Of a DNA stretch of 64,000 nt, positions 3,770 to 27,245 are shown in pieces. Position 1 is the stretch's first letter; each line of letters begins with the position of its first letter. The notes below the pieces were generated by a model. The model was given only the letters and a program-made list of their open reading frames with translations. It had not been told where the DNA came from and searched no databases. A program made the translations under genes and the position numbers. The stretch comes from an uncultured Chloroflexia bacterium (GTDB taxonomy: Bacteria; Chloroflexota; Dehalococcoidia; DSTF01; JALHUB01): assembly GCA_963703345.1 (NCBI GenBank), contig OY969814.1, positions 864,001 to 928,000 on the forward strand, given 5' to 3'.

Positions 3770-4227
3770 TCTTGCCCTCTATTCTCAGTCTGCCGCAGCG
3801 GGCTGGGCCCCAGCCGTTCGACGGTCTCCACCATTTCCCGCACGCGCGCCACAAACGTCGGCGCCTCCGACGCTGAGAGGTTGACCATCCGCAGACGCTC
3901 GCCGCCGATGCCGATGTCGTCCAGGAGCTTTCGCGCGGCCGCGATCCGGCGCTTCGCGCGCAGGTTCCCCTCGACGAAGTGGCAGCTGCCCTCCAGGCAG
4001 CCGGCGATAAGCACGCCGTCGATGCCCCGCTCGAACGCCGCCAGTATCTGCTGCACCTCCACCTTGCCGCTGCAGGGCACGTGGACGATGCGGACGTTCG
4101 CCGGGTACTGCATGCGTCGCGAACCGGCCAGGTCGGCGGCGGCGTAAGCGCAGAAGTTGCAGCAGAACGCCAGTATCTCGCAGCGCTCCGTCGTTGCGCC
4201 GGCCTTCGTCTCTTCCGTCTCAATCAT
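3766..4227 (-). CDS. mvhD: Hydrogenase iron-sulfur subunit MvhD/FlpD
   Basis: FCCNFCAYAAADLAG, VPCSGKV, GCLEGSCHF.EGN, ERL motifs. Confidence 0.9.
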   Translation of the reverse strand: MIETEETKAGATTERCEILAFCCNFCAYAAADLAGSRRMQYPANVRIVHVPCSGKVEVQQILAAFERGIDGVLIAGCLEGSCHFVEGNLRAKRRIAAARKLLDDIGIGGERLRMVNLSASEAPTFVARVREMVETVERLGPSPLRQTENRGQE

Positions 4228-7200
4228 GTAGCGTTCCCACCAGCAGCTCGTCCAGCATCGCCGTGAGCTGGCCTTCCTCCTGGTTCTGAAGCTGAATCGC
4301 CTGCGCAGGGCAGGCCGCGACGCAGCTCCCGCAGCCCAGACACTTCGCCGCCTGTATCGCGACCTTGTGCTCGACGAGGACGGGCGCGCCGTATGGGCAG
4401 ACCTTGACGCAGGTCATGCAAGCCGTGCAGGCGGAAGCGTCGACTTTCGCGATTTGCCCGCCGACCTCCAGGTACGGCTTCGAAAGCACCGTCGCCGCCC
4501 GCGCGGCGGCCGCCAGCGCCTGCGCTATCGTCTCGTCGACGAAGCGGGGCGAGTGGGCCAGCCCGCAGACGAAGACGCCCTCGCTGGCCAGGTCGACCGG
4601 CCGCAGCTTGGGGTGTGCCTCCAGGAAGAAGCCGTCGGCGGTTAGCGACGTTCGGATGATGGACGACAGCTTCGGGTTGTCCGTCGCCGGCGCGATGCCG
4701 GTGCTCAGCACGAGCAGGTCCGGCCGCAAGACGAGCCTTCGACGCGTTCCGGCGTCGGTGACGCGCACCGTCAGGCCGCCGTCGTCGCTGGTTGCGGGCT
4801 CCTCGTCTTCGCGGTAGCGGATGAACAGCACGCCGGCCTCGCGCGCCTTCTGATAGTACGTCTCGCGGAAGCCGTAGGTGCGCATGTCTTTCATCAGGAC
4901 GATGACGCGGGCGTCCGGTCGCGCCGATTTGAGGGCCAAGGCGTTCTTCACCGCCTCGGCGCAGCAGACGCGACTGCAGTAGTTGTTCTCCTCGGTGCGC
5001 GAGCCGACGCACTGGATCATGACCACGGTCGGGCTTTCGCCGAGGCCTGCCGGGTCGCCGGCGGCAAGTCGTGCCTCCAGCTCGCGTTGGGTTACCACGC
5101 GCTCGTTCTTCCCATACAGATGCGCCTCAGACACGCGCTCGACGCCTCCGGTCGCGACGATGGCGACGCCGTGGGAGATCGTCTCCTCGCGTCCGTTCGA
5201 CATAACTACGCTCTTGAAGTTGCCGACGTGTCCGTTGAGCTCGACAAGCTCCGAGTTGAGATGAGTGTGAATCTGCGGATGCGCCTGCACGCGGTCGATG
5301 AGCCCCGCTGCGAACTGCTGGATGTCGTCGCGCTCCAGCGTATAGTGGAGCTGGCGGAGGTTGCCGCCGAGGACGTCGCTCTTCTCCACCAGGTGCGTCT
5401 CGAAGCCCTGGTCCGCGAGCGAGAGCGCCGCCGTCATGCCGGCCAGCCCGCCGCCGAGCACCAGCGCCGAGCGCGTTATCGGCAGGCGGCTCCGCTCCAG
5501 CGAGCGCAGCAGTCGCGCCCGCCCAACCGCCATGCGCATCAGGTCGCAGGCCTTCTCCGTCGCCTGGACGGGGTCGTCCCGGTGCACCCACGAGCACTGG
5601 TCGCGGATGTTCGTCATAGCGAAGAGAAACGGGTTGAGGCCGGACTCGCGCAGCGTCTCCTGGAACAAGGGCTCGTGCGTCCGCGGCGAGCAGGAGGCGA
5701 CGACGACGCGGTTCAGCCGCTTTTGCTTGATGATCTGCTTTATCGCCTCCTGGCAGTTGTCGGAGCAGGTGTAGAGGTCCGTCTCGGCGTGGACGACGTT
5801 GCCCATGGCCGCCGCCTCGCGTTTCACCGCTTCGACGTTGACGACGGAGGCGATGTTGTGGCCGCAGTGGCAGATGAACACGCCGACGCGCGGCTCTTCG
5901 TCCGTCACGTCGCGCTCCCAGGGATACTCGTGCCGCTCGACCTGTGTGCCGCGGCCTTCCCGCAGCAGCTCCATCGCCGCCGCGGCCGCCGCGCTCGCCT
6001 GGGCGACCGATTCCGGGATGTCCTTCGGCTCCTGGAAGGCGCCGGCGACAAAAACGCCGGGTCGCGATGAGATGACGGGCGCCAGGCGGTCGGTGCGGCA
6101 GAAGCCGAACTCGTCGCGCTCGACACCGAGGTGTCGGGCCAGCTCGTCGGCGCTTGCTCCGGGCTTCAGGCCGATGGAGAGCACCACCAGGTCGAAGTCT
6201 TCCAGCTTCTCCGCGCCCTCCTCGTCGAAATAGCGGAGGCTGAGGTCTTTCGTGTTCGGCCTCTCGACGACGCGTGAAGGGATGGCGCGGACGTAGCGAA
6301 CACCGTATTCGCTTTGGGCGCGGCTGACGTAGCGGTCGAACTCCTTGCCGAAGGCGCGCACGTCGATGCAAAAGATGGCGATCTCCAGATTCGCGTCGTG
6401 CTCCAGCGCGACCATCGCCTCCTTCGTCGCCGACATGCAGCAGACCGCGGAGCAGTAGCCGTTGCCGCAGGCGCTGTCGCGGGAGCCGACACACTGGATG
6501 AAGGCGACGCGCCGCACCGGACCGCCGTCGGAGGGTCGGACGAGCGTGCCTTCCGTCGGCCCGGAGGCGCTAAGCATGCGTTCGAACTGGATGGAGCTGA
6601 GGACGTTGGCGTAGCGCCCGTGGCCGTACTCGCCGCGCAGCGACGCTTCGATCTCCTCCGTCCCCGGCGTCAGAATGACCGCGCCCACCCGCAGCGTCTC
6701 GGTCCGCGTCCGCATGTCGTGGACGATGGCGCCCGGGCCGCAGGCCTTCTCGCAGAGGCGGCAGTCGGAGCATAGGCCGCAGTTGAGGCAGCGCAGCGCT
6801 TCGGCGACGGCGTCGTCCTCCGAGTAGCCGAGGTCGATCTCACGCATGTCGCCGCGGCGCTCGACGACGGGCGACTGCGGCATGGCGTGTCGCGGCTGGA
6901 CGGTGGCGGCTGGGTTGGGGTTCGGCGCCGCTGTCTTGCCGGCATCGCTCTGCCTCGGCTGGGGTGACGCTCCGCGCAGGTAGTCGTGGATCGTCTGGGC
7001 GGCGCGATGACCGTGCGCCATCGCCTCGACGAGCGAGGCAGGGCCGAGGACCGCGTCGCCCCCGGCGAAAACGCCCGGCAGCGAGGTCGAAAGGCAGTCG
7101 TCGCAGTCAATGCGCGAGGCGCCGGCGAACGGTAGGCCCTCCAGGTCGGAGCTCTGGCCGATGGCGAGAATGACCGTGTCGGCGTCGAAGACGAAGTTTG

Positions 7201-8647
7201 AGCCTTCGATGGGCTGGGGTCGCCGCCGGCCGCTCTCGTCCGGCTCGCCCAGCTTCATGCGCAGGCACTCCAGGCCCGTGACGGAACCCTCGCCGATAGC
7301 GCGCACGGGGTTGGCAAGATAGAGGAACTCGACGCCCTCTTCCTCGGCGAGTTGGATCTCTTCGTCCAGCGCCGGCATCTCCGCGCGCGAGCGCCGGTAG
7401 ACGACGGTGACTTTCTCCGCGCCGAGGCGCAGCGCCGTGCGGGAGGCGTCCATCGCCACGTTGCCGCCGCCGATGACGGCGACCCGCCTGCCGACGGACA
7501 CGGGCTCGCCCAGGTTCGCCGATTTCAGGAAGTCGAGGCCCTGGAGAACGCCCGGCAGGCCGGCGCCTTCGATGTCCAGGCGTTCGCTGCGGTGAGCGCC
7601 GCAGGCGACGAAGAACGCCGCGTATCCTTCCTCGCGCAGGCCGTCCAGCGTCACGTCGCGGCCGACGCGGCAGTCCAGGCGCACGTCGATGCGGTCGTTC
7701 AGCAGACGGCCGATCTCGAAGTCCAGCACGTCGTAAGGCAGGCGATAGGCCGGGATGCCGAGGCGCAGCATTCCGCCGAGGAAGGGCAGCGCCTCAATAA
7801 TCGTCGCCCGGTAGCCCATGCGGCTGAGGTCATGCGCCGCCGTAAGGCCCGCCGGCCCGCCGCCGATAACGGCGACCCGCTGCTCGCGCAACTCCGCGAA
7901 GCCTTCCGACGGCGAGTCGTCGCCGAGCTCGTCGCGGTGGGTGTACACCCAGTCCGTTGCGAAGCGCTTCAAGTCGCGAATGGCGACGGGGGCGTCGATT
8001 TCGGCGCGATTGCACTGCGTCTCGCAGGGGTGCTGGCAGATGCGTCCGCAGACCGCCGGCAGGGGGCACTGCTCGCGGATGACCTCGTAGGCCTCCTTGA
8101 AGCGCCGCTGGCCGATGAGAGCGACGTACGCCTGCGCGTTGACGCCGGCCGGGCAGGCCAGCTTGCAGGGCGCCTCGCCGTCGGCTTTGGCGATGGTGAA
8201 GGCGTTGGGCACGGCCTGCGGGTATTCGCGGAAGATCGCTTTGCGCTGGCCAAGGCCACGGTCGAAAGCGCTTTCGAGGCTGACGGGGCAGACTTCCGCG
8301 CAGTCGCCGCAGCCGTTGCACTTCGCCAGGTCGACGAAGCGGGCGTTTCGTTTGACAGTGACGTCGAAGCGGCCCGGCTCGCCGCTGATCCCTTCGATCT
8401 CGCCCAGCGTGATGATCTCGATGTTCTTGTTGCGCCCGCACTCGACGAGCTTGGGCGAGAGGATGCACATGGAGCAGTCGCCGGTGGGGAAAGTCTTGTC
8501 GAGCTGCGGCATGCGGCCGCCGACCGCGGAAGAGCGCTCGACGAGGTAGACCTTGAAGCCGGAGTCAGCCAGGTCCAGCGACGCCTGGATGCCGGCGATG
8601 CCGCCGCCGTAGACGAGCACAGCGCCGCTGGGGCGTTCGTCCGTCAT
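4220..8647 (-). CDS. hdrA: Large heterodisulfide reductase A-like flavoprotein (HdrL type, with GltD-like NAD(P)H-binding insert)
   Basis: Starts MTDERPSGAVLVYGGGIAG; contains LDKTFPTGDCSMC, ferredoxin CxxCxxCxxxCP motifs, a GltD-like block (CGRICQHPCE, GGGPAGL, GGGNVAMD), two IQCVGSR..YCS..CC motifs and a C-terminal ferredoxin. About 1475 aa. Confidence 0.9.
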   Translation of the reverse strand: MTDERPSGAVLVYGGGIAGIQASLDLADSGFKVYLVERSSAVGGRMPQLDKTFPTGDCSMCILSPKLVECGRNKNIEIITLGEIEGISGEPGRFDVTVKRNARFVDLAKCNGCGDCAEVCPVSLESAFDRGLGQRKAIFREYPQAVPNAFTIAKADGEAPCKLACPAGVNAQAYVALIGQRRFKEAYEVIREQCPLPAVCGRICQHPCETQCNRAEIDAPVAIRDLKRFATDWVYTHRDELGDDSPSEGFAELREQRVAVIGGGPAGLTAAHDLSRMGYRATIIEALPFLGGMLRLGIPAYRLPYDVLDFEIGRLLNDRIDVRLDCRVGRDVTLDGLREEGYAAFFVACGAHRSERLDIEGAGLPGVLQGLDFLKSANLGEPVSVGRRVAVIGGGNVAMDASRTALRLGAEKVTVVYRRSRAEMPALDEEIQLAEEEGVEFLYLANPVRAIGEGSVTGLECLRMKLGEPDESGRRRPQPIEGSNFVFDADTVILAIGQSSDLEGLPFAGASRIDCDDCLSTSLPGVFAGGDAVLGPASLVEAMAHGHRAAQTIHDYLRGASPQPRQSDAGKTAAPNPNPAATVQPRHAMPQSPVVERRGDMREIDLGYSEDDAVAEALRCLNCGLCSDCRLCEKACGPGAIVHDMRTRTETLRVGAVILTPGTEEIEASLRGEYGHGRYANVLSSIQFERMLSASGPTEGTLVRPSDGGPVRRVAFIQCVGSRDSACGNGYCSAVCCMSATKEAMVALEHDANLEIAIFCIDVRAFGKEFDRYVSRAQSEYGVRYVRAIPSRVVERPNTKDLSLRYFDEEGAEKLEDFDLVVLSIGLKPGASADELARHLGVERDEFGFCRTDRLAPVISSRPGVFVAGAFQEPKDIPESVAQASAAAAAAMELLREGRGTQVERHEYPWERDVTDEEPRVGVFICHCGHNIASVVNVEAVKREAAAMGNVVHAETDLYTCSDNCQEAIKQIIKQKRLNRVVVASCSPRTHEPLFQETLRESGLNPFLFAMTNIRDQCSWVHRDDPVQATEKACDLMRMAVGRARLLRSLERSRLPITRSALVLGGGLAGMTAALSLADQGFETHLVEKSDVLGGNLRQLHYTLERDDIQQFAAGLIDRVQAHPQIHTHLNSELVELNGHVGNFKSVVMSNGREETISHGVAIVATGGVERVSEAHLYGKNERVVTQRELEARLAAGDPAGLGESPTVVMIQCVGSRTEENNYCSRVCCAEAVKNALALKSARPDARVIVLMKDMRTYGFRETYYQKAREAGVLFIRYREDEEPATSDDGGLTVRVTDAGTRRRLVLRPDLLVLSTGIAPATDNPKLSSIIRTSLTADGFFLEAHPKLRPVDLASEGVFVCGLAHSPRFVDETIAQALAAAARAATVLSKPYLEVGGQIAKVDASACTACMTCVKVCPYGAPVLVEHKVAIQAAKCLGCGSCVAACPAQAIQLQNQEEGQLTAMLDELLVGTLHD

Positions 8648-9531
8648 CGCGCTACCGCCTTCTCCGCGCGCAGGATGCCTTTTCGCGCCAGCAGCGGCAG
8701 CGGGTCGACCAGCAGGCTTCGCAGGCCTAGCTGCTGCGCCGGAAGGCCGAGCGCCAGCCCGAGGAGCTGCGTGAAATAGAAGACGGGCAGCCCGAAGCGT
8801 TCGCCGTGCTTCTTTTCGATGTCGCTCTGCCGCATGTCCAGGTTGAGCTGGCAGAGGGGGCAGGCCGTGACGATGCAATCGGCGCCGGCTTCTCGCGCCG
8901 CAATCAGTATTGCGCGAGACAGGCGCAGGACGATCTCCGTCTTCGTTATCGAGTAGCTGGCGCCGCAGCAGTCCGTCTTTGCCGGCCAGTCGATGGCTTG
9001 AGCGCCGCTGGCAGTCATCAGCTTGTCGAGCAGCGTCGGGTTCTCCGCGTCGTCGAAGCGCATTATCGCCGGCGGCCGCACGAGGAGGCAGCCGTAATAG
9101 GCGGCGACGCGCAGACCGGCGAGCGGCTTCGTCACTTTCTCAGACAGGCTGACGAAGCCAATGTCGTCGCGCAATATCTCCAGGAAGTGCTTTACCGGCG
9201 TCGAGCCGTCGTAGTCGGCGCCGATGGCGTCGGCGACCATACGCCGGCTCTCCGCATCGCCTGCGATCTCATGGTTCGCCAGCTTGAGGCGACTGTAGCA
9301 GGCGGCGCAGGCCACGGCGACGGTCTGGCCCGAAGCAGCGGCGAGATTGGCGGCCGGCAACGCGAGGGCGAGCAGGGCGTCGGTCTGATGGGCGGCCGTG
9401 GAGCCGCAGCACGTCCAGCCGGCAAGCTCCGGCAGGTCGATGCCGAGAGCGGCCGCAACCGCCTTCGTGGAGAGCGCGTAGTCCTTCGCCGTCGATTCCA
9501 GCGAGCAGCCGGGGTAGAAGACGTAGCTCAC
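8644..9531 (-). CDS. hdrB: Heterodisulfide reductase subunit B (CCG domains)
   Basis: YPGCSL, WTCCG, ACAACY, YYGCLL.RP, DCCG, TACPLCQLNLD. Confidence 0.9.
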   Translation of the reverse strand: MSYVFYPGCSLESTAKDYALSTKAVAAALGIDLPELAGWTCCGSTAAHQTDALLALALPAANLAAASGQTVAVACAACYSRLKLANHEIAGDAESRRMVADAIGADYDGSTPVKHFLEILRDDIGFVSLSEKVTKPLAGLRVAAYYGCLLVRPPAIMRFDDAENPTLLDKLMTASGAQAIDWPAKTDCCGASYSITKTEIVLRLSRAILIAAREAGADCIVTACPLCQLNLDMRQSDIEKKHGERFGLPVFYFTQLLGLALGLPAQQLGLRSLLVDPLPLLARKGILRAEKAVAR

Positions 9532-10097
9532 GGCGCCCCCTTCCTTTGCTCTCGCGCCCGACGGAAGATGCGTTGGCGCTTGGCGCGGTCGCCGGACAGG
9601 CGTGGCAGAAGCGCGAACTTGCCCTTTCGCAGCATCGTCGGGAACTTGGCAACGTCTTGCGAGAAGCGACGCGTGCGCAGCTTGAAGGCAGCCATCAGCA
9701 CCAGTTCATGCGTGCGGCCGAGCTGTCGCACCATCGCAAGAAAGATATCGTTGAAGGCGGGAACGGCGGCGTCAGCGGCGACTTTCCTTTCGCGCGAGAG
9801 GCGTCGCAGGGCATCGATGGCCGCGGGCAGGGCGACCGCCTGCGGGCAACGGGCTTCGCAGGTGCCGCAGGACGTGCATTCCCAGATGAAGCGGCTGGCC
9901 AGCAGCTCGTCCGTGGCGCCGAGTTGCACAAGGCGAACGATCTCGTGCGGCTTCACGTCCGCGTCCGCAGCGACGGGACAGCCGGAGGTGCACTTGCAGC
10001 ACTGGAAGCACAACGAGAGCGCGGCGTCCGCCAGGAGCCTCTTGAGGGCGCCGGAGGGCATTGCCGGAGAAAGAGGACGTTCTATAGCCGAGGTCAT
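9528..10097 (-). CDS. hdrC: Heterodisulfide reductase subunit C (2x[4Fe-4S])
   Basis: CFQCCKCTSGCP and WECTSCGTCEARCP. Start overlaps the metF stop. Confidence 0.88.
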   Translation of the reverse strand: MTSAIERPLSPAMPSGALKRLLADAALSLCFQCCKCTSGCPVAADADVKPHEIVRLVQLGATDELLASRFIWECTSCGTCEARCPQAVALPAAIDALRRLSRERKVAADAAVPAFNDIFLAMVRQLGRTHELVLMAAFKLRTRRFSQDVAKFPTMLRKGKFALLPRLSGDRAKRQRIFRRAREQRKGAP

Positions 10098-10972
10098 GAG
10101 AGCCCTTTCGCCAGGCCGGCGCGCGAGATCACCTCGGCGACGACGCCCGGCGTTCCGCCCCAGGCGATGTGGACGCCGCGCACGCCTTCGAGGCTCGCCA
10201 GCTTTGATGCCATCTCCGCGCAGATGGCGATGCCTTCGGCGGCGGCGTCTGTCGCGTCCCTGAGGCGCGCAACGACGGCTTCGGGAACGCGGCCGCGGCG
10301 CTGGAGCGCTTCCGCCTGCGCCACGTCGGTCAGCGGCTGGACGGCGGCGATTATAGCGACGGTCTTGCTGAGCTTCTCCTGTCGCGCTGCGTCGAGCCAT
10401 TCGACGAAGGACGCGGCATCGAAGACGGGGCTCGTCATAAGGAAGCGGGCACCGGCCTTCACCTTCTTTCGGGCGTCGATGAGGCTCAGCTCGAGCGGGC
10501 GCAGATGCGGGTAGGCCTCGGCGCCGATGAAGAGCGAGAACGGCGCGCCGTCCGACGGGTCGGCGAGCAGTTGGATGAGCTGAACGGGGTCGACGTCATA
10601 TACGCCGGCGGCTTCCGGCTGGGCGCCGAGCGATTGGTGGTCGCCCGGCAGGCAGACGACGTTCTTGACGCCAAGCGCCGCCGCTCCGGCGACGTCGGCG
10701 AGAAGGGCTGTGCGGTTGCGGTCCCGCGTGAGCAGCGTTAAGACCGGCTCCGCGCGCTGCGCCGCCAGCAGAGTGGAGCACACGAGGGCGGAGATGGCCC
10801 GTTCGCCACCGCTGGAGACGACGAGCGCATCGAGGGAGGACGGGAACGCGGCGGCCAGGGCTCTTACGGCGTCGGCGTCTCTGGCGCCCGCCGTCATGAG
10901 CTCCGCGGTCACCACGCGGCGTCCGCTCTCCAGGGCCCGCGCCAGACTCGATGTCTCCGTAGCCTGACTCAT
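10094..10972 (-). CDS. metF: Methylenetetrahydrofolate reductase-like protein (divergent MetF)
   Basis: VTAEL, EPVLTLLTRDRNR, GVKNVVCLPGDH, KKVKAGARFLMTSPVFD, GVHI. MTHFR fold with several substitutions. Confidence 0.8.
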   Translation of the reverse strand: MSQATETSSLARALESGRRVVTAELMTAGARDADAVRALAAAFPSSLDALVVSSGGERAISALVCSTLLAAQRAEPVLTLLTRDRNRTALLADVAGAAALGVKNVVCLPGDHQSLGAQPEAAGVYDVDPVQLIQLLADPSDGAPFSLFIGAEAYPHLRPLELSLIDARKKVKAGARFLMTSPVFDAASFVEWLDAARQEKLSKTVAIIAAVQPLTDVAQAEALQRRGRVPEAVVARLRDATDAAAEGIAICAEMASKLASLEGVRGVHIAWGGTPGVVAEVISRAGLAKGLS

Positions 10973-10973
10973 C

Positions 10974-11444
10974 TTACCCGCCTCTCTGATTGGCGTTCCT
11001 GGACAGCGGGCTTCGTTGGAGGCCGGCAAGCGCCGCCGCGACCGCCTGTGCCAGGTCACCCTCGCCGCCGTCCGGCGTCGGGTCGATTAAGGTGAGCCGA
11101 TTTCCGCCGAGGCTGATGTCGTCCAGGATGCTTTTCACGTAGTCGATTCGTCGTTGGACGCGACGGCGTCCTTCCATGTAGCGGCACCGGCCGTCGCCGC
11201 AGGCGGCCACGAGCACGAGGTCCACGCCCTGCTCGAAAGCCTTGAGGAAGTGCTCCGGCTGGAGCTTCCCGGCGCAGGGGACACGGATCTCTCGCACGGA
11301 AGGCGGGGTGGGCTCCCGGGGAGGTGTGGCTTCCCGCGCCGCGCCGCCCGACGACTTGGAGACGCAGCGGAACAGGACGACGTCCAGCGGGAAATCAGGG
11401 GGGACCGCCGTAATGGCGGTGCTCTGGTTCAAGCTGCCTTCCAT
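10974..11444 (-). CDS. Second, divergent MvhD-like iron-sulfur subunit
   Basis: IRVPCAGKL...LKAFEQGVD...ACGDGRCRYMEG. The N-terminal CC.xC motif is reduced to one Cys. Confidence 0.75.
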   Translation of the reverse strand: MEGSLNQSTAITAVPPDFPLDVVLFRCVSKSSGGAAREATPPREPTPPSVREIRVPCAGKLQPEHFLKAFEQGVDLVLVAACGDGRCRYMEGRRRVQRRIDYVKSILDDISLGGNRLTLIDPTPDGGEGDLAQAVAAALAGLQRSPLSRNANQRGG

Positions 11445-12439: not shown

Positions 12440-13000
12440 GGAGAAACCCCACGATCTCCAGCTCAACGAGGCCGACCTGCATGCGGTAGCCGGCAGCGTC
12501 TTCGCCTTCTACAAGTCGCTCGGAGCCCACTTTGACCTGCTCTTCTTCGACCCATCGGACCGCGACGCCGCTTACTACCAGGTGCAGCGCGGCGACGGCG
12601 GCGCCCACTGGCGGAAGGACGCCGACTTCGAGAGGTTCGGGACTTTCGTCAGCAGCATCGTAAGGGAGACGGGCCGCTGGGCGATCGTTTGGCAGGTGCC
12701 CGTCGGCAACACCATCTATCGCAGCATGGACAATAGCTGGGGGCACTACCAGGACAATCGCCTTCAGTACTGGCTCGGCGACCGGGCGCACGCGCAGGTG
12801 CTGGCGGATGGCGGCGTCATCGCCGTCCTGTTCGGCGCCGGCGCGGATGGCTGCACGACGTACACGGACGAGATGAACGACGGCGTCACCAATCCGCCAC
12901 CCATCGACGGCAATGACCAGGAAGCGCAGTACTCGGACGACGACGGCGGCTATCTACGGCTGAGCGCGTCGGCATACTACCAGGCCGGCGCGCTCTCTCG
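12440..13000 (+). pseudogene. 5'-truncated fragment of a hypothetical protein (possibly a carbohydrate-active TIM-barrel C-terminus)
   Basis: Protein-like stretch (SDRDAAYY, WQVPVGN, MDNSWGHYQDNR, LFGAG, DDDGGY) with genome-typical codon use. No clear start, and the frame reads through into non-coding-looking sequence. Confidence 0.45.
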
Positions 13001-16113: not shown

Positions 16114-16123
16114 GTGGTAGAAT
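16114..16123 (+). promoter_or_regulatory. Extended -10 promoter for the GRE operon
   Basis: GTGGTAGAAT (TGn-TAGAAT) about 45 bp before the RBS GAGGAGG/ATG. The same decamer occurs upstream of tkt. Confidence 0.5.
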
Positions 16124-16166
16124 CGACGTACGATCTTCGTTGGCGAGCGCGAAGAGGAGGTCGACC

Positions 16167-19142
16167 ATGGCACTGCGGGATACTCTCGTTGAGCGCACGA
16201 CCGGTCCCTACCTGGCGACCGTCCTCAAGCTCATGGCGCTCAACTTCAATCGCAACGCCGACCTGAGGCGCGAGCTCTACCAGCGACGGAACGGCTTGTC
16301 GAAACCTTTCGATTCCCGCTACCAGTTTCGCACCGTCGATGGTGCCCTCTCTCTGTATCTTACCATCGAGGGCGGGCGCATGCGCGGCGGCAGCGGCGCC
16401 GTCCGCGAGCCGCATGTCGTCGCCACCTTCCGCGACGCGGCCGCCATGCGCGCCTTCCTGTCGCCTTTCGCCCGCAGCGACCCGCTGAACCTGATGATCG
16501 ATAACAAGCTCTCCTTCGAAGGCAACCTCAGCCACCTGGGGCGCTTGGGCCATCTTACCGCTGTCGCCCGCAACCGTCACTGGCGAAAAAAGCTCAGCGC
16601 CGCGCCCGAAGCCGGCGATCTGACGAAGACGGGCGATTCGATGCTGGCGGCCTCGCGCGCGGAGCGGCGTCGCGAGACGCTGCGCTGCGCTCCAACAGAC
16701 GAAGTCGCCGTCCTCGACGACCCTTACCTCAGCCGCTACACTATCGACGATTTCCCGCGTCTCAAGGCGATGCGCGCCGAGTTCTTCGGCGCCCACGGAG
16801 AGGTCTGCACCGAACGCCCGCGCCTCGTCACCGAGTACTATCGCGAGCACGGCTTCGAGACCGACCCGGAAGGCGGTGAGATCGACCCGGAGGTCAGGCA
16901 GGCCGGCGCGCTTCACCACGTCCTCGCAAACAAGGAGCCCATCATCCGCGAGCGGGCCCTCCTGCCCGGAACAACGACCACCAAGTTCCCCGGCGTGGTC
17001 ATCTACCCCGAGATCGGCGGCACGACGATCTGGGCCGAGCTCACCACCGTCGGCGACCGCGCCCTCAATCCCTACCGCATCTCGCCGGAGGATGTCGACC
17101 TGCTCAGTCGCGAAGTCTTTCCGTTCTGGGTCGATCGCAACATACGAGAGTGGACGCGACGCCGCTGGAACAACCCCCGCTGCCAGCAGCTCGACGAGCG
17201 ATGGGTGCTGTACTTCATGTGGAAGACGGCGGCCGTCTCGCACACGATCCCCGACTACCCGGGCGTGCTCCAGCGCGGCCTCCTCGCCTTCCGGGAAGAC
17301 GCGGCCCGCGGCGAAGCCACCGCCACCGACGAGCGCTCGCGCAATTTCTACCGCGCCGTCCAGACGGTCATCGACGGCGTGCTGCGCTACGCTGAGCGGC
17401 TCGCGGACAAGGCGGAGTCGATGGCGGCGGAAACGGGCGACGCCCAACGCCGCGACGAGCTCCAGGAGATGGCGCGCATCTGCCACAAAGTGCCTGCCGG
17501 CCCTGCCGAGTCGCTGCACGAGGCGCTGAGCGTAATCCTGCTCATCCAGATCGCCCTTCACATGGAGAACATGAACGCCGGACTATCCATCGGCCGTCTG
17601 GACGCCTGGCTCCAGCCCTACTTCCTCCACGATGTCGCCCTCGCGAAGACGGAGGAGGAGAAGGAGACGGTAGTGCGGCGCGCCGTCGAGCTCGTCGGCT
17701 CCTTCTTCCTCCAGTGCAACGACCACCTGCCGCTGGTGCCGAGCGTCGGGATGCGACTCTTCGCCGGCAGCTCGTCCGACATGGCGGTCACGCTCGGCGG
17801 CGTCGACGCTGAAGGCAAGAGCGCCGTCTGCGACATGACCTACGTCATCCTCAAGGCGGCGGAGATGCTGACCTTACGGGACCCAAACCTGAACGCCCGC
17901 TACCATCCCAGGGCGAACTCTCTCGAATACCTGCGCCGCCTCTGCGAAGTGAACGTCATTACCACCTCCACGCCCTCGATTCACAATGACGAAGCGGTCA
18001 TCGCGGCGCTCGTCGAGCAGGGGTTCGCACTGGAGGACGCGCGCGACTGGGGCGCCACCGGCTGCGTCGAGCCGACGAGTTGCGGGCGCCACATGGGCCA
18101 CACCAACTCCATGCTCTTGAACACGGTCGCGGCGCTGGAGATGGTCCTCAACGACGGCTTCCACCCGCTCGTCGGCGAGCAAATCGGCCCGCACAGCGGC
18201 GACCCTGCCGGCGGCGCCTTTGGTACGTTCGACAAGTTCCTCGCCGCCTACAAGCAGCAGCTTGGCTACCTGATCGGCCAGTCGGTCGAGTACAACAATT
18301 TTCTCGGGCAGGCGCACCAGTACCTGCACCCGACGCCGCTGCTATCGTCGCTGGTCGGCGGCTGCCTGGAGAGCGGCCGCGACGTTATCGAAGGCGGCGC
18401 GAAGTACAACAGCTCCGGCTCCGCGCTCGTCTCCCTCGCCGACGTGGTCGACAGCCTGCTGGCCATCAAGCAACTGGTCTACGAAGAGAAGGCGGTCGAC
18501 TTCCGAACGCTGCTTCAGGCCTTGCGCGACGACTTCGCCGGCCACGAGGCGCTGCACGCCCGCATCATGAAGCGCGTCCCCAAGTTCGGTTCCGACGCGC
18601 CCGGCACCCGAGAGATGGCGCAGGACATCATCAACTTCATCTACGATGAATATCAATCGCGGGCCAACTATCGCGGCGGGCGCTACACCAGCGGCTTCTG
18701 GAGCATGTCGAACCACGTTGTCTTCGGCTCGCTCTCCGGCGCTCTGCCCAGCGGGCGCAAGAAGGGGAAGGCGTTCACGCCCGGCATTACGCCCTCGGCG
18801 TCGGCCTCGCCCAACCTGCTGGACAACATCCGCACCATCGCCGCCCTCGACCCGCTGAAGATGCCGAACAACATCGCCTTCAACGTCAAGCTCACGCCCG
18901 CGCCCGGCGAGCCGCACGCCGACTTCGTCGAGCACGCGACGGCCTACGCGAGGACCTACTTCGAGCTCGGCGGCATGCAGATGCAGTTCAACATGGTGAC
19001 AACGGAGACCCTGCGGGACGCCATGGAGCACCCCGAGAACTACCGCAACCTCATGGTCCGCATCTCCGGCTACAACGCCTATTTCGTCGAGCTGAACCGC
19101 GAGATGCAGATCGAGCTCATCGAGCGGGCGGAGTACCGCTAG
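16167..19142 (+). CDS. Glycyl radical enzyme (PFL2/dehydratase-like) with N-terminal SCP2-like domain
   Basis: Cys loop GATGCVEP, Gly loop VRISGYNAYF, SIGRLD, PKFG, GALPSGR; about 991 aa with an N-terminal extension. Confidence 0.92.
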   Translation: MALRDTLVERTTGPYLATVLKLMALNFNRNADLRRELYQRRNGLSKPFDSRYQFRTVDGALSLYLTIEGGRMRGGSGAVREPHVVATFRDAAAMRAFLSPFARSDPLNLMIDNKLSFEGNLSHLGRLGHLTAVARNRHWRKKLSAAPEAGDLTKTGDSMLAASRAERRRETLRCAPTDEVAVLDDPYLSRYTIDDFPRLKAMRAEFFGAHGEVCTERPRLVTEYYREHGFETDPEGGEIDPEVRQAGALHHVLANKEPIIRERALLPGTTTTKFPGVVIYPEIGGTTIWAELTTVGDRALNPYRISPEDVDLLSREVFPFWVDRNIREWTRRRWNNPRCQQLDERWVLYFMWKTAAVSHTIPDYPGVLQRGLLAFREDAARGEATATDERSRNFYRAVQTVIDGVLRYAERLADKAESMAAETGDAQRRDELQEMARICHKVPAGPAESLHEALSVILLIQIALHMENMNAGLSIGRLDAWLQPYFLHDVALAKTEEEKETVVRRAVELVGSFFLQCNDHLPLVPSVGMRLFAGSSSDMAVTLGGVDAEGKSAVCDMTYVILKAAEMLTLRDPNLNARYHPRANSLEYLRRLCEVNVITTSTPSIHNDEAVIAALVEQGFALEDARDWGATGCVEPTSCGRHMGHTNSMLLNTVAALEMVLNDGFHPLVGEQIGPHSGDPAGGAFGTFDKFLAAYKQQLGYLIGQSVEYNNFLGQAHQYLHPTPLLSSLVGGCLESGRDVIEGGAKYNSSGSALVSLADVVDSLLAIKQLVYEEKAVDFRTLLQALRDDFAGHEALHARIMKRVPKFGSDAPGTREMAQDIINFIYDEYQSRANYRGGRYTSGFWSMSNHVVFGSLSGALPSGRKKGKAFTPGITPSASASPNLLDNIRTIAALDPLKMPNNIAFNVKLTPAPGEPHADFVEHATAYARTYFELGGMQMQFNMVTTETLRDAMEHPENYRNLMVRISGYNAYFVELNREMQIELIERAEYR

Positions 19143-19147
19143 CCGCC

Positions 19148-20069
19148 ATGACCGGCAACGTGGCGTCCGCGCCGGAGCGGAGGCGGCCCCTCATCGTCGA
19201 CGTGCGCCACAACTCGCTCGACGACGGCCCGGGCGTTCGCACGACTATCTTCTTCAAAGGCTGCCCGCTGGCCTGTGTCTGGTGCCATAACCCAGAGGCT
19301 ATCTCGTCCGCGCCTGAGATAGCCTTCATGGAGAAGGGCTGCATTGTCTGCGGCGACTGCCAGCCGGTCTGCGAGGCGCGGGCGCTCGGTCCCGGCCCGG
19401 CCGTCGCCTTCGATCGCTCGCGCTGCAACCTCTGCGGCGCTTGCGTCGAACGTGTGTCCCACGGGCGCCCTCAAGCGGGTGGGACGCCACTGGGAGATCG
19501 ACGACCTTCTGGCGGACCTCCTCCGCGACGAGCCTTTCTATCGAAACTCCGGCGGCGGCGTCACCCTCTCCGGCGGCGAAGCGACGATGTTCCCACGCTA
19601 CGCCGAAGAGCTGCTGGCGCGTCTTCACGAAGCGGGCGTACACACGCTCATCGAGACCTGCGGGCTCTTCCGGCTGGAGACGTTCCGCGAGCGCCTCCTC
19701 CCGCATCTCGACCAGGTGTACTACGACGTCAAGTTCGTAGACGAAGGGCTGCACCGGCGCTACGCCGGCCGGCCCAACGGCATTATCCTGGCGAACCTGG
19801 AAGCGCTGGCCAGCATCGCGCCCGGCCGAGTGCTGCCGCGCGTGCCGCTGGTCCCCGGCCTGACCGCCGACCTGGACAACCTGCGCGCTATCGGGCTCTT
19901 CCTGCATCGCCTGGGCTTCGCGGAGGCGCGCTTGCTGCCCTACAACCCGCTTTGGGCGGAGAAGGCGGCGAGCGTCGGGCGGGAGAGCGGCTACCGCCAC
20001 GATGGATGGCTTGCTCGCGAGGAGCAGGCGGCCTGCGAGAGTGCTTTCTTCGAAGCGCTACGCGGCTAA
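19148..20069 (+). CDS. Glycyl-radical activating enzyme (radical SAM, 2x[4Fe-4S] insert); +1 frameshift near 19450
   Basis: DDGPGVRTTIFFKGCPLACVWCHNPE and CIVCGDCQPVC. Removing one A at 19449-19450 gives CNLCGACVDVCP, followed by GGGVTLSGGEA and LLPYN. Confidence 0.9.
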
Positions 20070-22702: not shown

Positions 22703-24244
22703 ATGACGGCTATCGTTGCGACGAGCAGGGGGAAGCTTCGGGGCGCCCGCGAAGGCGACCAGGTGGTCTTCAAAGGCATCCCTTACGCGTCGCCCCCGGT
22801 CGGCGAGCTCCGTTTTCGCGCGCCTGCGGAGGCGCCGCCGTGGCAGGGCGTCCGCGAAGCGACAGACTTCGGGCCGCGGGCAATGCAAGTTCCCAGCGAG
22901 GCGCTGGAAGCCCTGCTCGGCCGGCCCGAGGGCCAACCGCCCATCGATGAAGACTGCCTCTATCTCAACGTGCGCACGCCCGCCCTCGACGGCGCCCGGC
23001 GACCCGTGATGGTGTGGGTGCACGGCGGTGGCTTCGCCGTTGGCGCCGGCTCCGACCCCCTTTACCACGGCAGCGCCCTCATCGACCGCGGCGTCGTGCT
23101 GGTTACCATCAACTACCGCCTTGGGCCGTTTGGCTTCCTTTACGCCCCGGACTTCGCCTCCGCGCCGGATGATCCTTGCGCCAACTTCGGCCTCCTCGAC
23201 CAGATCGCGGCGCTGAAGTGGGTGCGGTCCGAGATAGCGGCGTTCGGTGGCGACCCCGAGAACGTCACCGTCTTCGGCGAGTCCGCCGGCGCCATGAGCA
23301 TCGGCGCGGTCCTCTCCTCGCCGCTCGCCGCCGGGCTCTTCGACAAGGCGATCCTCCAGAGCGGCGCCGCGCACCAGGTTCTGAGCACAGACACGGCCGC
23401 CGCCAACGCCGCCGCTTTCGCCGAAGCCCTGGGCTCCCCCGCGCTCGACGCCTCCCTTCGCTCTCGACCCGTGAGCGAGCTGCTGGCCGCGCAGGCGAAG
23501 CTGGGGGGGGGCGAGGGTTGGACCAGACGCCGCGCGGTCGGGCTCGGGCTGCTCTACCAACCGGTAATTGACCGACGCGTCATCCCCGGGCCACCGATAG
23601 AGGCGATTCGAAAGGGCTTCTCCAGCGGTGTCCCCATCCTCATCGGGACCACGCTTGATGAGTTCAAGCTTTTCGCCGCCATGGCGCCGCACCTGAGGGA
23701 TGCTTCCGAAGAACAGGCGGTGAAACGCGTCTCGCGACTGCTCCCGGGCGGCGAACTAGAGCGCGCCCGCTCACTGCTCGATGTCTATCGCCGCGAACGG
23801 ACCGCCCGAGGCCAAGAGACGTCTGCTTACGAGCTCTTCTGCTCGATCGCGACCGACTGGCTCTTCCGCGTGCCGGCCGACCGCCTGGCCGAGGCGCAGT
23901 CGGCGCACAACCGGCGCGTCTTCTCCTACCGGCTCGACTGGCCCTCGCCCCTCGGCGACGGCATCCTCGGCGCCTGCCACGCCATCGACCTGCCGTTCGT
24001 CTTCGGGACGCAGCGCCTGGCGCGACGCTGGGTCGGAAAGGGAGAGGAGTTGGATGCGCTGGCCGCGAAGATTGGCGACGCCTGGGTCGCCTTCGCGAGG
24101 ACCGGCGACCCTGGTACACCGTCCCTGCCCTGGCCGCCGTTCGAGGCGAAGGAGCGGCGGACGCTCATCCTCGACCGCGAGTGCCACGTCGAGAGCCGCC
24201 CGCGCGAGGCGGAGCGACGCTGCTGGGACGGCGCTATCCCTTGA
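22703..24244 (+). CDS. Carboxylesterase type B (PnbA-like)
   Basis: FKGIPYA, EDCLYLNV, VHGGGF, NYRLG, GESAG nucleophile elbow, catalytic Glu (DEF) and His (ACHAIDL). Confidence 0.92.
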   Translation: MTAIVATSRGKLRGAREGDQVVFKGIPYASPPVGELRFRAPAEAPPWQGVREATDFGPRAMQVPSEALEALLGRPEGQPPIDEDCLYLNVRTPALDGARRPVMVWVHGGGFAVGAGSDPLYHGSALIDRGVVLVTINYRLGPFGFLYAPDFASAPDDPCANFGLLDQIAALKWVRSEIAAFGGDPENVTVFGESAGAMSIGAVLSSPLAAGLFDKAILQSGAAHQVLSTDTAAANAAAFAEALGSPALDASLRSRPVSELLAAQAKLGGGEGWTRRRAVGLGLLYQPVIDRRVIPGPPIEAIRKGFSSGVPILIGTTLDEFKLFAAMAPHLRDASEEQAVKRVSRLLPGGELERARSLLDVYRRERTARGQETSAYELFCSIATDWLFRVPADRLAEAQSAHNRRVFSYRLDWPSPLGDGILGACHAIDLPFVFGTQRLARRWVGKGEELDALAAKIGDAWVAFARTGDPGTPSLPWPPFEAKERRTLILDRECHVESRPREAERRCWDGAIP

Positions 24245-24253
24245 AAGACCGCG

Positions 24254-27245
24254 CTAACGCTTCCGTTGGCGCGCCAGCACCAGCCCCACGTGGTCCAGCA
24301 ACTGCTGCGGCGAGAACGGCTTCTCCAGCCACGTCGTCCCGCCGAACTCGCGGCCGCGCACAACGTCCTCGCGGTTCTGCGTCGCGGTGATGAAGGCGAC
24401 CGGCGTCTGGGAGAACCTTCGTATCTCCTCCAGCACCTCCAGGCCGCTCATGCCCGGCATCCGCATGTCGAGAAGGACGATCTCCGGTGTGTGGAAGCGC
24501 ACCAGCTCCGCCGCCGCCAGCGGATCGCTCGTTCAACACGACCTCGCAGCCGGCGCTTCGCAGGCAGTGCTCGATGTAGTGCAGAATGTCCGGCTCATCG
24601 TCGACAGCGACGACGCGGACGGGCTTGGCGTGGACGCCGCGGGCCGCCCGCTGCCGTCCGGCGCCCCTCTCCTCGCGCGCTGTCTTCGCCCGGCCGGCGA
24701 TGGCGGGCAGCGTGAAGGCGAAGACCGTCCCCTTCCCCCTGCCTGCGCTCTCCGCCCAGATGCGACCGCCGTGCGCCTCGACGATACCCTTGCAGATGAA
24801 CAGGCCGAGCCCCGTCCCTTTCACGCCCCTCTCCTGCACCCGGACGAACTTCTGGAATAGAAGCGGCATCTTGTCGGCGGGGATGCCGACGCCGGCGTCG
24901 CGCACGCGGACCGTCACTTCTCCTTTGGCGCTCTCCGCAGTAACGATGATCGGCGCCGTGGGCGCGGAGTACTTCGCCGCGTTGGTGAAGAGATTGGTCA
25001 GCACCTGGACAATGCGGCGGCCGTCGGCCCGCAGCGCCGGCAGCTTAGCCGGCAGCATCACCTCCAGCGGGTGCGGGTACTGACTGTGCTCGAAGATCAC
25101 TCTCGCCTCTTCCACGGTGGTCGCCAGGTCCGCCGCGCCCGGCTCTATCGAAAGGCGCCCCGCTTCGATGCGCGTCACGTCTAGCAGGTTGGCGACGAGA
25201 TCGGTTAGGCGGTTCGCCTGCGCGTCGATGATGTCGAACAGCTCGCGCGTCTCGACGGCGTCCGGCGGTATCGGCGCGGAAAGCGCCATGGAGGCGCACC
25301 CTTTGATAGCCGTCAGCGGCGTCTTCAGCTCGTGGCTCACCTCGCCCAGGAACTCGCTGCGTGTCTGCTCCAGCTCGGCTTCCAGCCGCTTGCGCGCCGA
25401 GATGTCCTGCTTGATGGCGATGAAGCGGCTGACGACGCGGTTGTCGTCGAGCACCGGCGTGATCGTCATCTCCTCCGTGTAGAAGCTGCCGTCCTTGCGC
25501 TTGTTGACGATTTCGCCCTGCCAAACGCGACCGGCCAGGATCGTGTTCCACAGCTTTTCGTAGAACGCCTGGTCGTGCCGGCCGGACTTGAGGACGCGCG
25601 GGTTCTGGCCTATCGCTTCGGCGGCGCTGTAGCCGGTAAGACGGGTAAAGGCGGGATTGACCCACTGGATCGTCCCGTCGCTGTCCGTGATGACGATGCC
25701 GTTGGCGGCGGCTTGCAGCGCGTTCGCCTGCAACCGCAATGCCTCCTCAGTGTTTACGCGCCGCGTCACGTTCCTGAAGTAACCGACGAGCCCGCTCACC
25801 CGGCCTTCGGAGTCATATGTCGGCACGTACGAACCTTCGAAGTACTCCGTACTTCCCTCGCGAGAAGCGAGGGGAGTAAAAACGTACTCGGGATTCCCCG
25901 TCTCAAGCACTCTCCTTTTGACTGTCGTGATCGTGGCCGCGTCCTCCGCGGACAGGAAGTCGAAATCCGTCTTGCCGATCATGTCGTCCAACGTGAGGCC
26001 CAGTTGGGGATTCAGCACCCAGGTGTACCGCAGCTCCTTATCCTGAACCAGGATGTGGTCCGGCGTGTGGGTGGCGATGACTTTGAACCTCTCCTCGCTC
26101 TCGCGCAGCGCCTCTTCCGCCCGCTTGCGCTCCGTCACGTTGACGTTGACGCCGAAGACACGAACAGGCCTGCCTGAGTCGTCGTAGGTCGCGCTGCCCT
26201 TGGCATTGACCCAGCGGACCTCGCTGGAGCCACGCAGAATGCGGAACTCCAAATCGAAGGACTCGTGGCGGGCCAACGCCTGATCCCTCTCGGCCTCGAT
26301 TCGTTCAATGTCGTCTGGATGCGCGAAGCTTCGCCAGTCGTCGTAGGTCTTGATGGTGCCGGGGGCAAGCCCGTATATCTCGTTGAGCTCCGGCGTGAAA
26401 GTGAAGACATCCCTGCCGAGATCCCAGTCCCAGGCCCATACCTTGGCGCCGCTTTGCGCCAGCCTCAGCCGCTCCTCGCTCTCGCGCAGCGCCTCCTCCG
26501 CCCGCTTCCGCACGGTGATATCCCGGCCGTAGATATTGGCATAGCCGGCGTTGGCCACCGGCACGACGCCGAGGGACCAGATTCGCCCGCCTAGCTCGAC
26601 ATCGACGGCGATCTCTTTCGGTTTCCGCCTTTTGAGCGCTTCGGCGACGAGCAAGCGCAGCGTTTCGGGCGCCATCTCACCCACGGCGCAGCCCCAATCC
26701 TCCAGCAGCGCCCGGCTTGCCTGGTTGGCGTACATGAGCACGCCGTGCTGGCTGACCCGCAAGACGGGGTTGGGGTTTTCGCCGGGGAACCTGGCCAGGC
26801 TCTCGATCTCCGTCTGGGCCCGCTTGCGGTCGCTGATGTCGCGGATCATGGCCTGGACGGCGAGTTCGCCGCCGTACTTGACGGGTGAAGAGATGACCTC
26901 AACCGGCACCTGCCGCCCGTCCAGCCGGATGATAGATGTTTCTCGCAGGGGTACCTTCTGGCCGGCCATGAGAGTGCGGACGCGCTTCTGGAGCTCATTC
27001 GCGTGGTTGGGGTTGGCGAGCTCCAAGATATTGCGTGTCGCCAGCTCCTCGAAGCTACCCGCGCCGTAGAGGTCAATGGCGGCGGGATTAGCGTAGAGGA
27101 CGTTGCCATCGCGGTGCACGAGTATAGCGTCCTGGGCCGAATCGAGAAGCGAGCGGTAGAACTCCCCGCTCTCGGGCAGCGCGGGGGCGCTTTTCGCTGC
27201 GCGGCGTCTTGGTGCTTTGTCGCGGTCGGATTGCTTAGCGCACAT
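24254..27245 (-). CDS. Multi-PAS hybrid sensor histidine kinase with C-terminal receiver; +1 frameshift near 24533
   Basis: Several PAS/PAC units, VSHELKTPLT H-box, N/G1/F/G2 boxes, VDDEP receiver start. The receiver continues in another frame (LLDMRMPGMSG, KPF). Confidence 0.88.

Follow-up and report, generated by a model that had tools for sequence, protein, structure and literature searches.

The 64,000-nt window analyzed here (contig OY969814.1 of assembly GCA_963703345.1, positions 864,001 to 928,000, from an uncultured Chloroflexia bacterium) carries a gene for a glycyl radical enzyme (GRE) with an N-terminal domain of the sterol carrier protein 2 (SCP2) type, followed by a gene for a GRE activating enzyme (activase). 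The GRE represents a real, widespread and uncharacterized clade with a new type of accessory module. The clade comprises hundreds of sequences from Chloroflexota, Desulfobacterota, Bacillota, Myxococcota and Asgard archaea. The original prediction had described this one gene pair; the observation is real and, beyond that prediction, the enzyme belongs to a large family in which split and C-terminally fused members also occur. SCP2 is kept in three gene arrangements across phyla (fused N-terminally, fused C-terminally or encoded by a separate gene), which makes it a GRE partner of a new kind, independent of what the substrate is. As to function, we give a probability of about 0.5 to a C-O-cleaving 1,2-eliminase whose substrate is a glycerol alkyl ether or a 1,2-diol with a long chain.

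The GRE and its N-terminal SCP2 domain

The features of the gene unit are the following.

16115-16123 (+): extended -10 promoter candidate TGGTAGAAT, from the sequence and an upstream alignment
16155-16160 (+): ribosome-binding site AGGAGG, from the sequence and conserved in the upstream alignment
16167-19142 (+): SCP2-fused GRE, 991 aa, intact
16188-16574 (+): SCP2-like domain, about residues 8-136, from profile searches, a domain model and structural matches
16575-16754 (+): linker, about residues 137-196, of variable sequence apart from a V-x-x-L-x-D-P-Y-L stretch preceding the core
17223-17243 (+): Lys353 and His359, invariant, with His359 aligned with His164 of glycerol dehydratase
18060-18074 (+): Cys loop GCVEP (Cys633, Glu635), from the sequence and alignments
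19059-19073 (+): Gly loop RISGY (Gly968), from the sequence and alignments
19148-20069 (+): GRE activase, radical SAM with a two-cluster ferredoxin insert, frameshifted near 19450 as assembled

Pfam placed the GRE core at residues 198-854 and the glycyl radical domain at residues 870-974 (PF02901, E 1e-165; PF01228, E 2e-21), which leaves an N-terminal extension of 197 aa. The open reading frame and Pfam bear out the prediction of a GRE of about 991 aa with a GCVEP loop holding one Cys only (C633) and a RISGY Gly loop. The start codon, an ATG with AGGAGG 7 nt upstream, agrees with an alignment to nine relatives. The model of the full-length protein has a pLDDT of 92.7 and a pTM of 0.93, and its core is the 10-stranded barrel of the superfamily.

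The first 150 aa gave a weak match to the Pfam SCP2 family PF02036 (E 0.048), and the score of the window protein, 14.4-14.8 bits, is below the gathering cut-off of 21.3. Across the family, PF02036 matched 52 of 67 aligned N-domains at E<=0.1, the best at 4.6e-7. A profile of the N-domains found the solved rabbit and human SCP2 structures at E 6-8e-4 (1c44, E 6.4e-4). Judging by these scores, the window domain is a divergent subfamily of the PF02036 clan. A Pfam SCP2 search of the window's own genome gave no match at E<=0.001. In a protein language-model look-up, SCP2 was annotated on 16-30% of cluster members.

The model of the N-domain (pLDDT 89.7) has the element order expected for SCP2, which is a helix, five strands and a helix. 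When it was compared with 48,161 chains, the ten best rows were all SCP2-type. These matches include the SCP2 domains of alkylsulfatases, fatty-acid-bound SCP2 and a human SCP2-like protein (8af2; Z 11.6, rmsd 2.6, 112 aligned); the alkylsulfatase YjcS scored Z 11.7 and yeast SCP2 Z 10.2. Eis-type proteins rank lower, at Z 5-6. Foldseek concurs with the SCP2 fold (E 7e-6 to 3bn8). The prediction of an N-terminal SCP2 domain is thus borne out by the PF02036 matches and the ten best structural rows, and the modeled structure confirms residues 8-136 as a real SCP2 fold. The confidence of the full-length model suggests that the SCP2 domain and the core may be docked in a fixed way.

Distribution and arrangements of the SCP2 module

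The fused family was searched with a profile from 15 sequences (7,997 scored candidates). The search gave 252 proteins; identities of the 120 that were listed range from 47 to 93%, and most of these proteins are 980-1030 aa long. Dehalococcoidia, Desulfobacterales, Syntrophomonadaceae, other Bacillota, Myxococcota and Asgard archaea host the fused form. Among the named hosts are Desulfatibacillum alkenivorans, Desulfatiferula olefinivorans and Syntrophomonas, which we take to be long-chain degraders. The nearest named relatives of the window GRE (88-93%) come from metagenome-assembled genomes (MAGs) of Dehalococcoidia or Chloroflexia. Within the class, the fused form was present in 3 of 301 genomes, window included, and the distribution of the family is patchy.

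Loci of the fused family were collected from genome contigs, where confirmation left 185 of 260 pattern hits, of which 80 were kept. With our own locus counted, the N-domain profile matches 71 of 81. The 5' part of the gene is absent in the ten others, nine of which lie at a contig edge, the tenth being L079. An activase adjoins the fused GRE in 58 of the 80 loci and is absent in 16, and six loci are too short to tell. Twelve of the 16 genomes without an adjacent activase carry one elsewhere that is 44-51% identical.

The search of same-class genomes also gave an 814-aa GRE without the N-terminal extension (core identity 46.5%). It is followed by a 151-aa protein that the N-domain profile matches at E 1e-29, and then by an activase. 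This split form has at least 120 relatives at 58-81%. A metagenome scan for loci of the sister clade was seeded with 38 GRE relatives, 80 of 588 confirmed loci were kept, and SCP2 was detected with a profile built from fused N-domains alone. A separate SCP2 gene stands directly after the GRE, between it and the activase, in 68 of the 80 sister loci. Eight have SCP2 fused at the C-terminus, three end too soon and one (L142) has none. Since SCP2 is kept in 76 of the 77 informative loci, it is a near-obligatory partner. A profile of the standalone proteins matched the fused N-domain profile with a probability of 99.9.

In a FastTree of 42 rows (a subset, midpoint-rooted), all SCP2-linked GREs fall on one side of a branch with 100% support. 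The N-terminal fusions form one group, and the C-terminal fusions need three changes. Fusion has thus occurred repeatedly at either end, as is expected of two proteins working in contact, and the GRE and the SCP2 module would be expected to work in this way. A mirror-distance correlation between GRE and SCP2 (Spearman 0.72, 36 pairs) was set aside because adjacent genes share their history.

Several fused-family loci have further peculiarities. In several genomes SCP2-GRE paralogues occur in pairs (L016 and L019, L018 and L030, L031 and L044), and often only one of the two adjoins an activase. In L049 (11353-13131) the activase is fused to a metallo-beta-lactamase-fold domain, and a gene for this fold follows the GRE unit in L036 (4730-5611) and L078 (12084-12782). 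A Dehalococcoidia MAG has a streptomycin-adenylyltransferase-family gene between the GRE and the activase (L007, 1893-2768).

Relation to characterized GREs

The window GRE is far below every NCBIfam equivalog cut-off: 406.9 bits against 1050 for CutC (TIGR04394), 402.4 against 1100 for HypD (NF043068), 413 against 1109 for PflD, 376 and 371.6 against 1000 each for HpfG and HpsG (NF048009, NF048011) and 108.8 against 994.2 for pyruvate formate-lyase (TIGR01255). The broad model TIGR01774 gave 568 against 678. In the core, the window GRE is 27.6-30.6% identical to database homologues of glycerol dehydratase, CutC, HypD, PflD and YbiW. A quick IQ-TREE groups 33 fused rows together (support 99) at the end of a long stem. 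The original prediction held that the enzyme belongs to no characterized GRE family, and had named tight clustering with one, such as HypD, together with a full substrate-binding set, as the finding that would speak against it. HypD is 27.6% identical in the core and lies in a separate clade, and by these comparisons the window GRE is a member of its own uncharacterized clade.

The best structural match of the full model is glycerol dehydratase of Clostridium butyricum (1R8W; E 4.6e-54, TM 0.95 on the target). Glycerol dehydratase and propanediol dehydratase (5I2G, 9RCP) are the closest in fold, and the equivalents of glycerol dehydratase His164, Cys433, Glu435 and Phe333 are kept. In contrast to the window GRE, they have no SCP2 module, and they are 27-31% identical to it; its locus has neither a 1,3-propanediol dehydrogenase nor a microcompartment. 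The best sequence hit among solved structures is PFL2/PflD of Archaeoglobus fulgidus (2F3O; E 9e-120, about 30% identity), whose function is unproven. Its stretch before the TxGG strand, NQAVTIGG, is similar to DQAITLGG of the family, but it has Glu at the position of Lys353 and Asp at that of Asn647, and no SCP2 fusion. Two PflD look-alikes from genomes of the same class share 39% identity with the core. Neither locus has an SCP2 gene, and a long branch separates them from the SCP2-linked GREs.

Other GREs are more distant. The isomerases YbiW and PflD share the CXE motif and a His at position 359 but differ in identity (30%), in their sugar-phosphate substrates, in their context of PTS and aldolase genes and in having no SCP2. 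CutC, HypD, HpfG, HpsG and IslA/IseG share the CXE motif, the fold and an activase with a ferredoxin insert. CutC has Asp in place of His359 and Phe at position 538, and the overall identity of IslA/IseG to the window GRE is 26%. Pyruvate formate-lyase has a Cys-Cys pair, whereas the window GRE has one Cys. BSS, MASS and HPAD resemble the split form in that a small partner is encoded beside the catalytic gene, but their partners are HiPIP-like or rubredoxin-like iron proteins and the partner here has the SCP2 fold. The alkylsulfatases SdsA1, Pisa1 and YjcS, which are among the best matches of the N-domain, have a C-terminal SCP2 and act on long-alkyl substrates; their core is an unrelated metallo-beta-lactamase fold and their chemistry is hydrolytic.

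Active site

All 119 fused and all 87 sister sequences have His359, Cys633, Glu635, Lys353, Asp519, Trp845 and His850. The CXE motif is kept by all GRE eliminases and isomerases according to a 2026 GRE review (PMC13450708), cited here and below for the sections consulted. In glycerol dehydratase, Glu435 deprotonates the C1 hydroxyl and His164 protonates the C2 hydroxyl (PMC13450708). The family keeps the eliminase triad as His359/Cys633/Glu635, so the eliminase-type residues that had been predicted from the GCVE motif are present throughout.

The rest of the pocket was mapped by sequence alignment, not superposition, onto the C. butyricum enzyme, whose His164/Cys433/Glu435 numbering agrees with the review (PMC13450708). 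Six positions differ in the window GRE: His281 becomes Ala471, Ser282 becomes Gly472, Tyr339 becomes Asp538, Asp447 becomes Asn647, Tyr640 becomes Trp845 and Ser642 becomes Met847. We take these six to be glycerol contacts, with Tyr339 and Ser642 presumably around C3. The equivalent of Asp447 is Asn or Gly across the family, and position 538 is Asp in 113 of 119 fused and Asn in 82 of 87 sister sequences. As aligned, the pocket outside the triad is remodeled. Three of the changes shrink side chains, in keeping with a larger substituent, and one (Trp) enlarges.

Gene neighborhood

Neighbors were tallied by BLAST with identified neighbor proteins over the 80 fused-family loci. The only constant partners are the activase and SCP2. 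Five loci have an aldehyde oxidoreductase (AOR) gene, and two, L024 and L029, have an aldehyde dehydrogenase (ALDH) gene directly downstream. An acyl-CoA dehydrogenase, a crotonase or an acyl-CoA ligase is encoded in 13 loci, three have GDPD, one has patatin, and nine have a TetR gene upstream. For AOR, a baseline was taken from genome-wide copy numbers in the 50 host genomes chosen among the longer of the 80 loci. AOR genes occur in 48 of these genomes, and AOR lies near the SCP2-GRE in 5 of 50 loci compared to 0.75 expected (Poisson P about 0.001). Aldehyde oxidoreductases are enriched near the SCP2-GRE.

The most telling string of genes, in L059, runs second GRE, acyl-CoA ligase, crotonase, AOR, 602-aa acyl-CoA dehydrogenase, SCP2-GRE. 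The crotonase and the dehydrogenase are kept in L033 and L062. The best solved matches of the 602-aa dehydrogenase are a mix of 6ijc, which we take to be DmdC, with FadE5 and further long acyl-CoA dehydrogenases. The dehydrogenase and the crotonase were also considered as a DmdC/DmdD-like pair, a reading that was dropped as not diagnostic, with no NCBIfam cut-off reached. The second GRE of L059 (2-1681) is a partial sequence with HypD as its best model (477 of 1100 bits).

The main recurring neighbors in the 80 sister loci are an internally repeated protein (10 by clustering), metallophosphoesterase-like proteins (8) and small membrane proteins (7), with a flavin oxidoreductase in 4, ALDH in 3 and AOR in 2. 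The repeated protein, an unknown, follows the activase in L082 (10923-12767), L105, L106, L109, L110, L111, L140, L141, L143, L146, L178 and L181; it matches no Pfam family and no named Atlas cluster. A database relative (P0173) has a similar domain apparently fused behind an SCP2 domain. One or two unknown membrane proteins of about 200 aa lie beside the split GRE in L110, L119, L120, L144, L145, L147 and L152, and the FMN-dependent flavin oxidoreductase accompanies them in four of those loci. An Atlas look-up of a 614-aa sister-clade neighbor gave hypothetical proteins only, and two further neighbors had no solved relative. Near the split-form loci L141, L151 and L176 there are genes of the contractile-injection type (tail sheath, tail tube, Pvc16).

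Proposed function

In the reading to which we give about even odds, the predicted role of the SCP2 module is to hold a long-chain substrate and present it to the GRE, which would act on the polar head. The activase would install the Gly968 radical, and the Cys633 thiyl radical would take a hydrogen from the carbinol carbon (GRE chemistry from PMC13450708). Glu635 would deprotonate the carbinol hydroxyl and His359 would protonate the adjacent leaving group, by the same chemistry (PMC13450708). The leaving group would be water or a long-chain alcohol, and the smaller residues at 471, 472 and 538 would give room for a long substituent. A 1,2-alkanediol would yield an n-alkanal; a 1-O-alkylglycerol would yield 3-alkoxypropanal, or a fatty alcohol and hydroxyacetone. 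The aldehyde or alcohol product could then be oxidized by AOR or ALDH and enter beta-oxidation. Since all of these products feed AOR/ALDH and beta-oxidation, gene context cannot separate the candidate substrates.

This reading is supported by the match of the N-domain to lipid-type SCP2, the retention of SCP2 in 76 of 77 sister loci, the invariant CXE motif and His164 equivalent, the structural match to glycerol dehydratase, the replacement of its His281, Ser282 and Tyr339, the AOR enrichment, the downstream ALDH genes of L024 and L029, the L059 gene string with its remainder in L033 and L062, and the presumed long-chain degraders among the hosts. Cleavage of an ether C-O bond has GRE precedent, since YbiW and PflD cleave a ring ether C-O bond (PMC13450708, section 5.7). 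The original prediction was a radical eliminase acting on a hydrophobic substrate that SCP2 delivers; the fold and the catalytic residues stand, and the hydrophobic substrate and its delivery are still inferred.

Several observations weigh against the eliminase of long-chain ethers or diols. Eis acetyltransferases have an SCP2 fold, and their substrates are aminoglycosides and arylalkylamines (PMC5799202, in the part consulted), so this fold alone is not proof of a lipid substrate. In the active site, the equivalent of Asp447 is lost (Asn/Gly), and invariant Lys353 would have no obvious role for a neutral substrate. Any AOR, ALDH or beta-oxidation gene is found in 17 of the 80 fused loci and none in 63, and the genomic baseline was computed for AOR alone. 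The five AOR loci are not independent, two being 67% identical, and kinship perhaps inflates the enrichment to five from three or four independent cases. The window locus has no AOR, ALDH or beta-oxidation neighbor. Its genome has three ALDH genes and, of AOR, a short remnant; the 602-aa dehydrogenase has no orthologue there (best 26%). In the sister clade, the commonest neighbors are unknown proteins rather than lipid enzymes. The AOR remnant, the sole AOR match of the genome (G000:C1:138979-139697), spans about 700 bases with the N- and C-terminal ends present and the middle missing.

A narrower form of the proposal, which we consider unlikely but worth stating, is an anaerobic ether-lipid lyase or dehydratase, with SCP2 as a lipid shuttle and the alkylglycerol ethers of bacterial or archaeal membranes as substrates. 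The fatty alcohol would be released directly, or via 3-alkoxypropanal, AOR, CoA ligase, dehydrogenase and crotonase. If this were true, the enzyme would be the first GRE to act on a membrane lipid, and it would provide a route for ether-lipid recycling in anoxic soils and sediments that is used by bacteria and Asgard archaea. More generally, if the substrate is a glycerol ether or a long-chain diol, the reaction would be an oxygen-free opening of lipids that survive in sediments and are used as biomarkers. Cultured hosts such as Desulfatibacillum alkenivorans DSM 16219, whose genome encodes a 46%-identical activase away from the GRE gene, make the function testable.

No paper linking a GRE with SCP2, sterol carrier or lipid-binding proteins was found in a search of titles and abstract openings in a library with few subscription journals. 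Within the same limits, the literature on Asgard GREs, Desulfatibacillum and anaerobic ether-lipid cleavage did not reveal the SCP2-GRE family. The sections consulted of the 2026 review describe no lipid substrate and no SCP2 partner, and the accessory subunits in them are all iron proteins (PMC13450708). Databases label proteins of the family as formate acetyltransferase or choline lyase, and genome-based metabolic claims that rely on them are therefore probably wrong.

The activase and its frameshift

The activase starts five bases past the GRE stop codon and has a CxxxCxxC motif and the two-cluster ferredoxin insert. The pair is flanked by a divergent DUF4389 gene and by a PrsW gene 159 nt downstream. 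The GRE and the activase are the sole ones found in the 96%-complete genome, and no BMC domain was found in it, in line with the prediction of a standalone two-gene unit without microcompartment genes. The predicted extended -10 promoter fared less evenly. TGnTAnnnT is conserved at the position of TGGTAGAAT in 8 of 10 aligned upstream regions, window counted, and a two-hexamer scan upstream of the GRE found no site. We therefore keep it as a conserved promoter candidate. The insert had also been taken as a hallmark of eliminases. That argument is weak, since the ferredoxin insert is common to the vast majority of GRE activases (PMC13450708, section 2.1) and so is no pointer to eliminases.

The prediction of a dedicated activase holds in that a two-cluster radical SAM gene adjoins the GRE, but one extra base near 19450, in an AA run, throws the gene out of frame and divides it into two pieces. 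The original prediction had hinted at this in speaking of a 'corrected activase'. The SCP2-GRE unit works in this genome only if the frameshift is an assembly error. The other explanation is that the frameshift is real, that this copy is silent and that the unit is beginning to decay. This question is separate from that of the substrate, and we lean against silence while taking it seriously. The broken gene is the genome's sole GRE activase, and the genome's AOR is merely a remnant. Nor is the assembly generally indel-ridden: among 91 orthologues compared with a same-genus genome there were 0 true frame switches, and a high general indel rate was not supported as the cause. Six of the 91 genes were flagged, of which four are tandem paralogues (one also with a stop) and two have stops in misassigned upstream starts. 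A gap count at the DNA level was set aside because it mixed in intergenic indels.

Against silence, the GRE, promoter and ribosome-binding site are intact, and the lesion is single, with both activase pieces 86-87% identical to one unbroken relative. Four relatives align without the extra base, and their proteins of 303-306 aa match both pieces at 70-87%. A more distant relative also lacks it (one contig, run X3); the single read run that contains half of the stretch leaves 19310-19514 uncovered. Seven of eight same-genus genomes carry an unbroken orthologue (80-100% to the L003 query), with one cut by a contig edge.

Alternative functions

A doubtful but serious alternative to the long-chain eliminase is that SCP2 is a structural or gating subunit, as the small subunits of BSS, MASS and HPAD are, and that the substrate of the elimination is a small polar compound, perhaps with a phosphate or carboxylate group, that Lys353 holds in place. 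The roles described for the small subunits of known GREs are channel gating, control of activation or help with solubility (PMC13450708, section 4.2). Lys353 is present in all 206 sequences, and genes resembling phosphoesterases turn up repeatedly, with a metallophosphoesterase-like gene at 8 of 80 sister loci and GDPD at 3 of 80 fused loci. Eis would again be the example of the fold without a lipid substrate (PMC5799202), yet the N-domain is nearer to lipid-binding SCP2 (Z 9-12) than to Eis (Z 5-6). The neighbors, which include acyl-CoA ligase, long acyl-CoA dehydrogenase, patatin and FadL, also argue for a lipid, and no sugar or solute transporter recurs among the genes scanned.

C-N cleavage of long-chain amino alcohols such as sphingoid bases, with hydrogen taken at C1 and ammonia lost from C2 to give a 3-hydroxy aldehyde, is quite improbable. 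The CXE chemistry would be that of CutC, the new acidic Asp538 (113 of 119) could hold the ammonium group, and downstream AOR and beta-oxidation genes fit equally. However, His359 is as in dehydratases where CutC has Asp, and the sister clade has Asn at 538 (82 of 87). CutC is the sole known C-N 1,2-eliminase (PMC13450708), and the window GRE reaches 407 bits of its 1050 cut-off.

A fumarate-adding enzyme for hydrocarbons (an alkyl- or alkenyl-succinate synthase) is very improbable: hosts include alkene degraders, A. fulgidus PFL2/PflD is the best sequence hit among solved structures and PflD has been suggested to have Ass activity (PMC8163825, in the part consulted), but the CXE motif of eliminases keeps its Glu635 in every sequence, MasD and TutD are near the bottom of the hits (E 1e-69 and 2e-50 compared to 1e-108 for glycerol dehydratase; 22-23% identity), the two-gene unit has no gene for an Fe-S small subunit and SCP2 is the sole small partner in sister loci. 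The fumarate-addition label of PflD-like Asgard enzymes itself rests on homology (PMC8163825, same part).

Other genes

Elsewhere in the window, a heterodisulfide-reductase-like cluster (4220-11444, minus strand) is consistent with an anaerobic host. It comprises a 1552-aa flavo-iron-sulfur protein, a CCG-domain protein, an Fe-S protein, an MTHFR-like protein and MvhD/FlpD. The gene at 12453-12998 has no Pfam hit, matches just the C-terminal 180 residues of 420-aa proteins and is apparently truncated; its 420-aa relatives are whole and duplicated in L002 and L004. At 24234-27245 (minus strand) lies a PAS histidine kinase gene whose receiver-like C-terminal part seems to shift frame near 24500, and its orthologue in L004 is broken at a different place. 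An Acinetobacter towneri plasmid carries an uncharacterized GRE and activase between transposases (L102, 4917-8292), and similar hits lie on Moraxella osloensis plasmids, both genera being regarded as aerobic.

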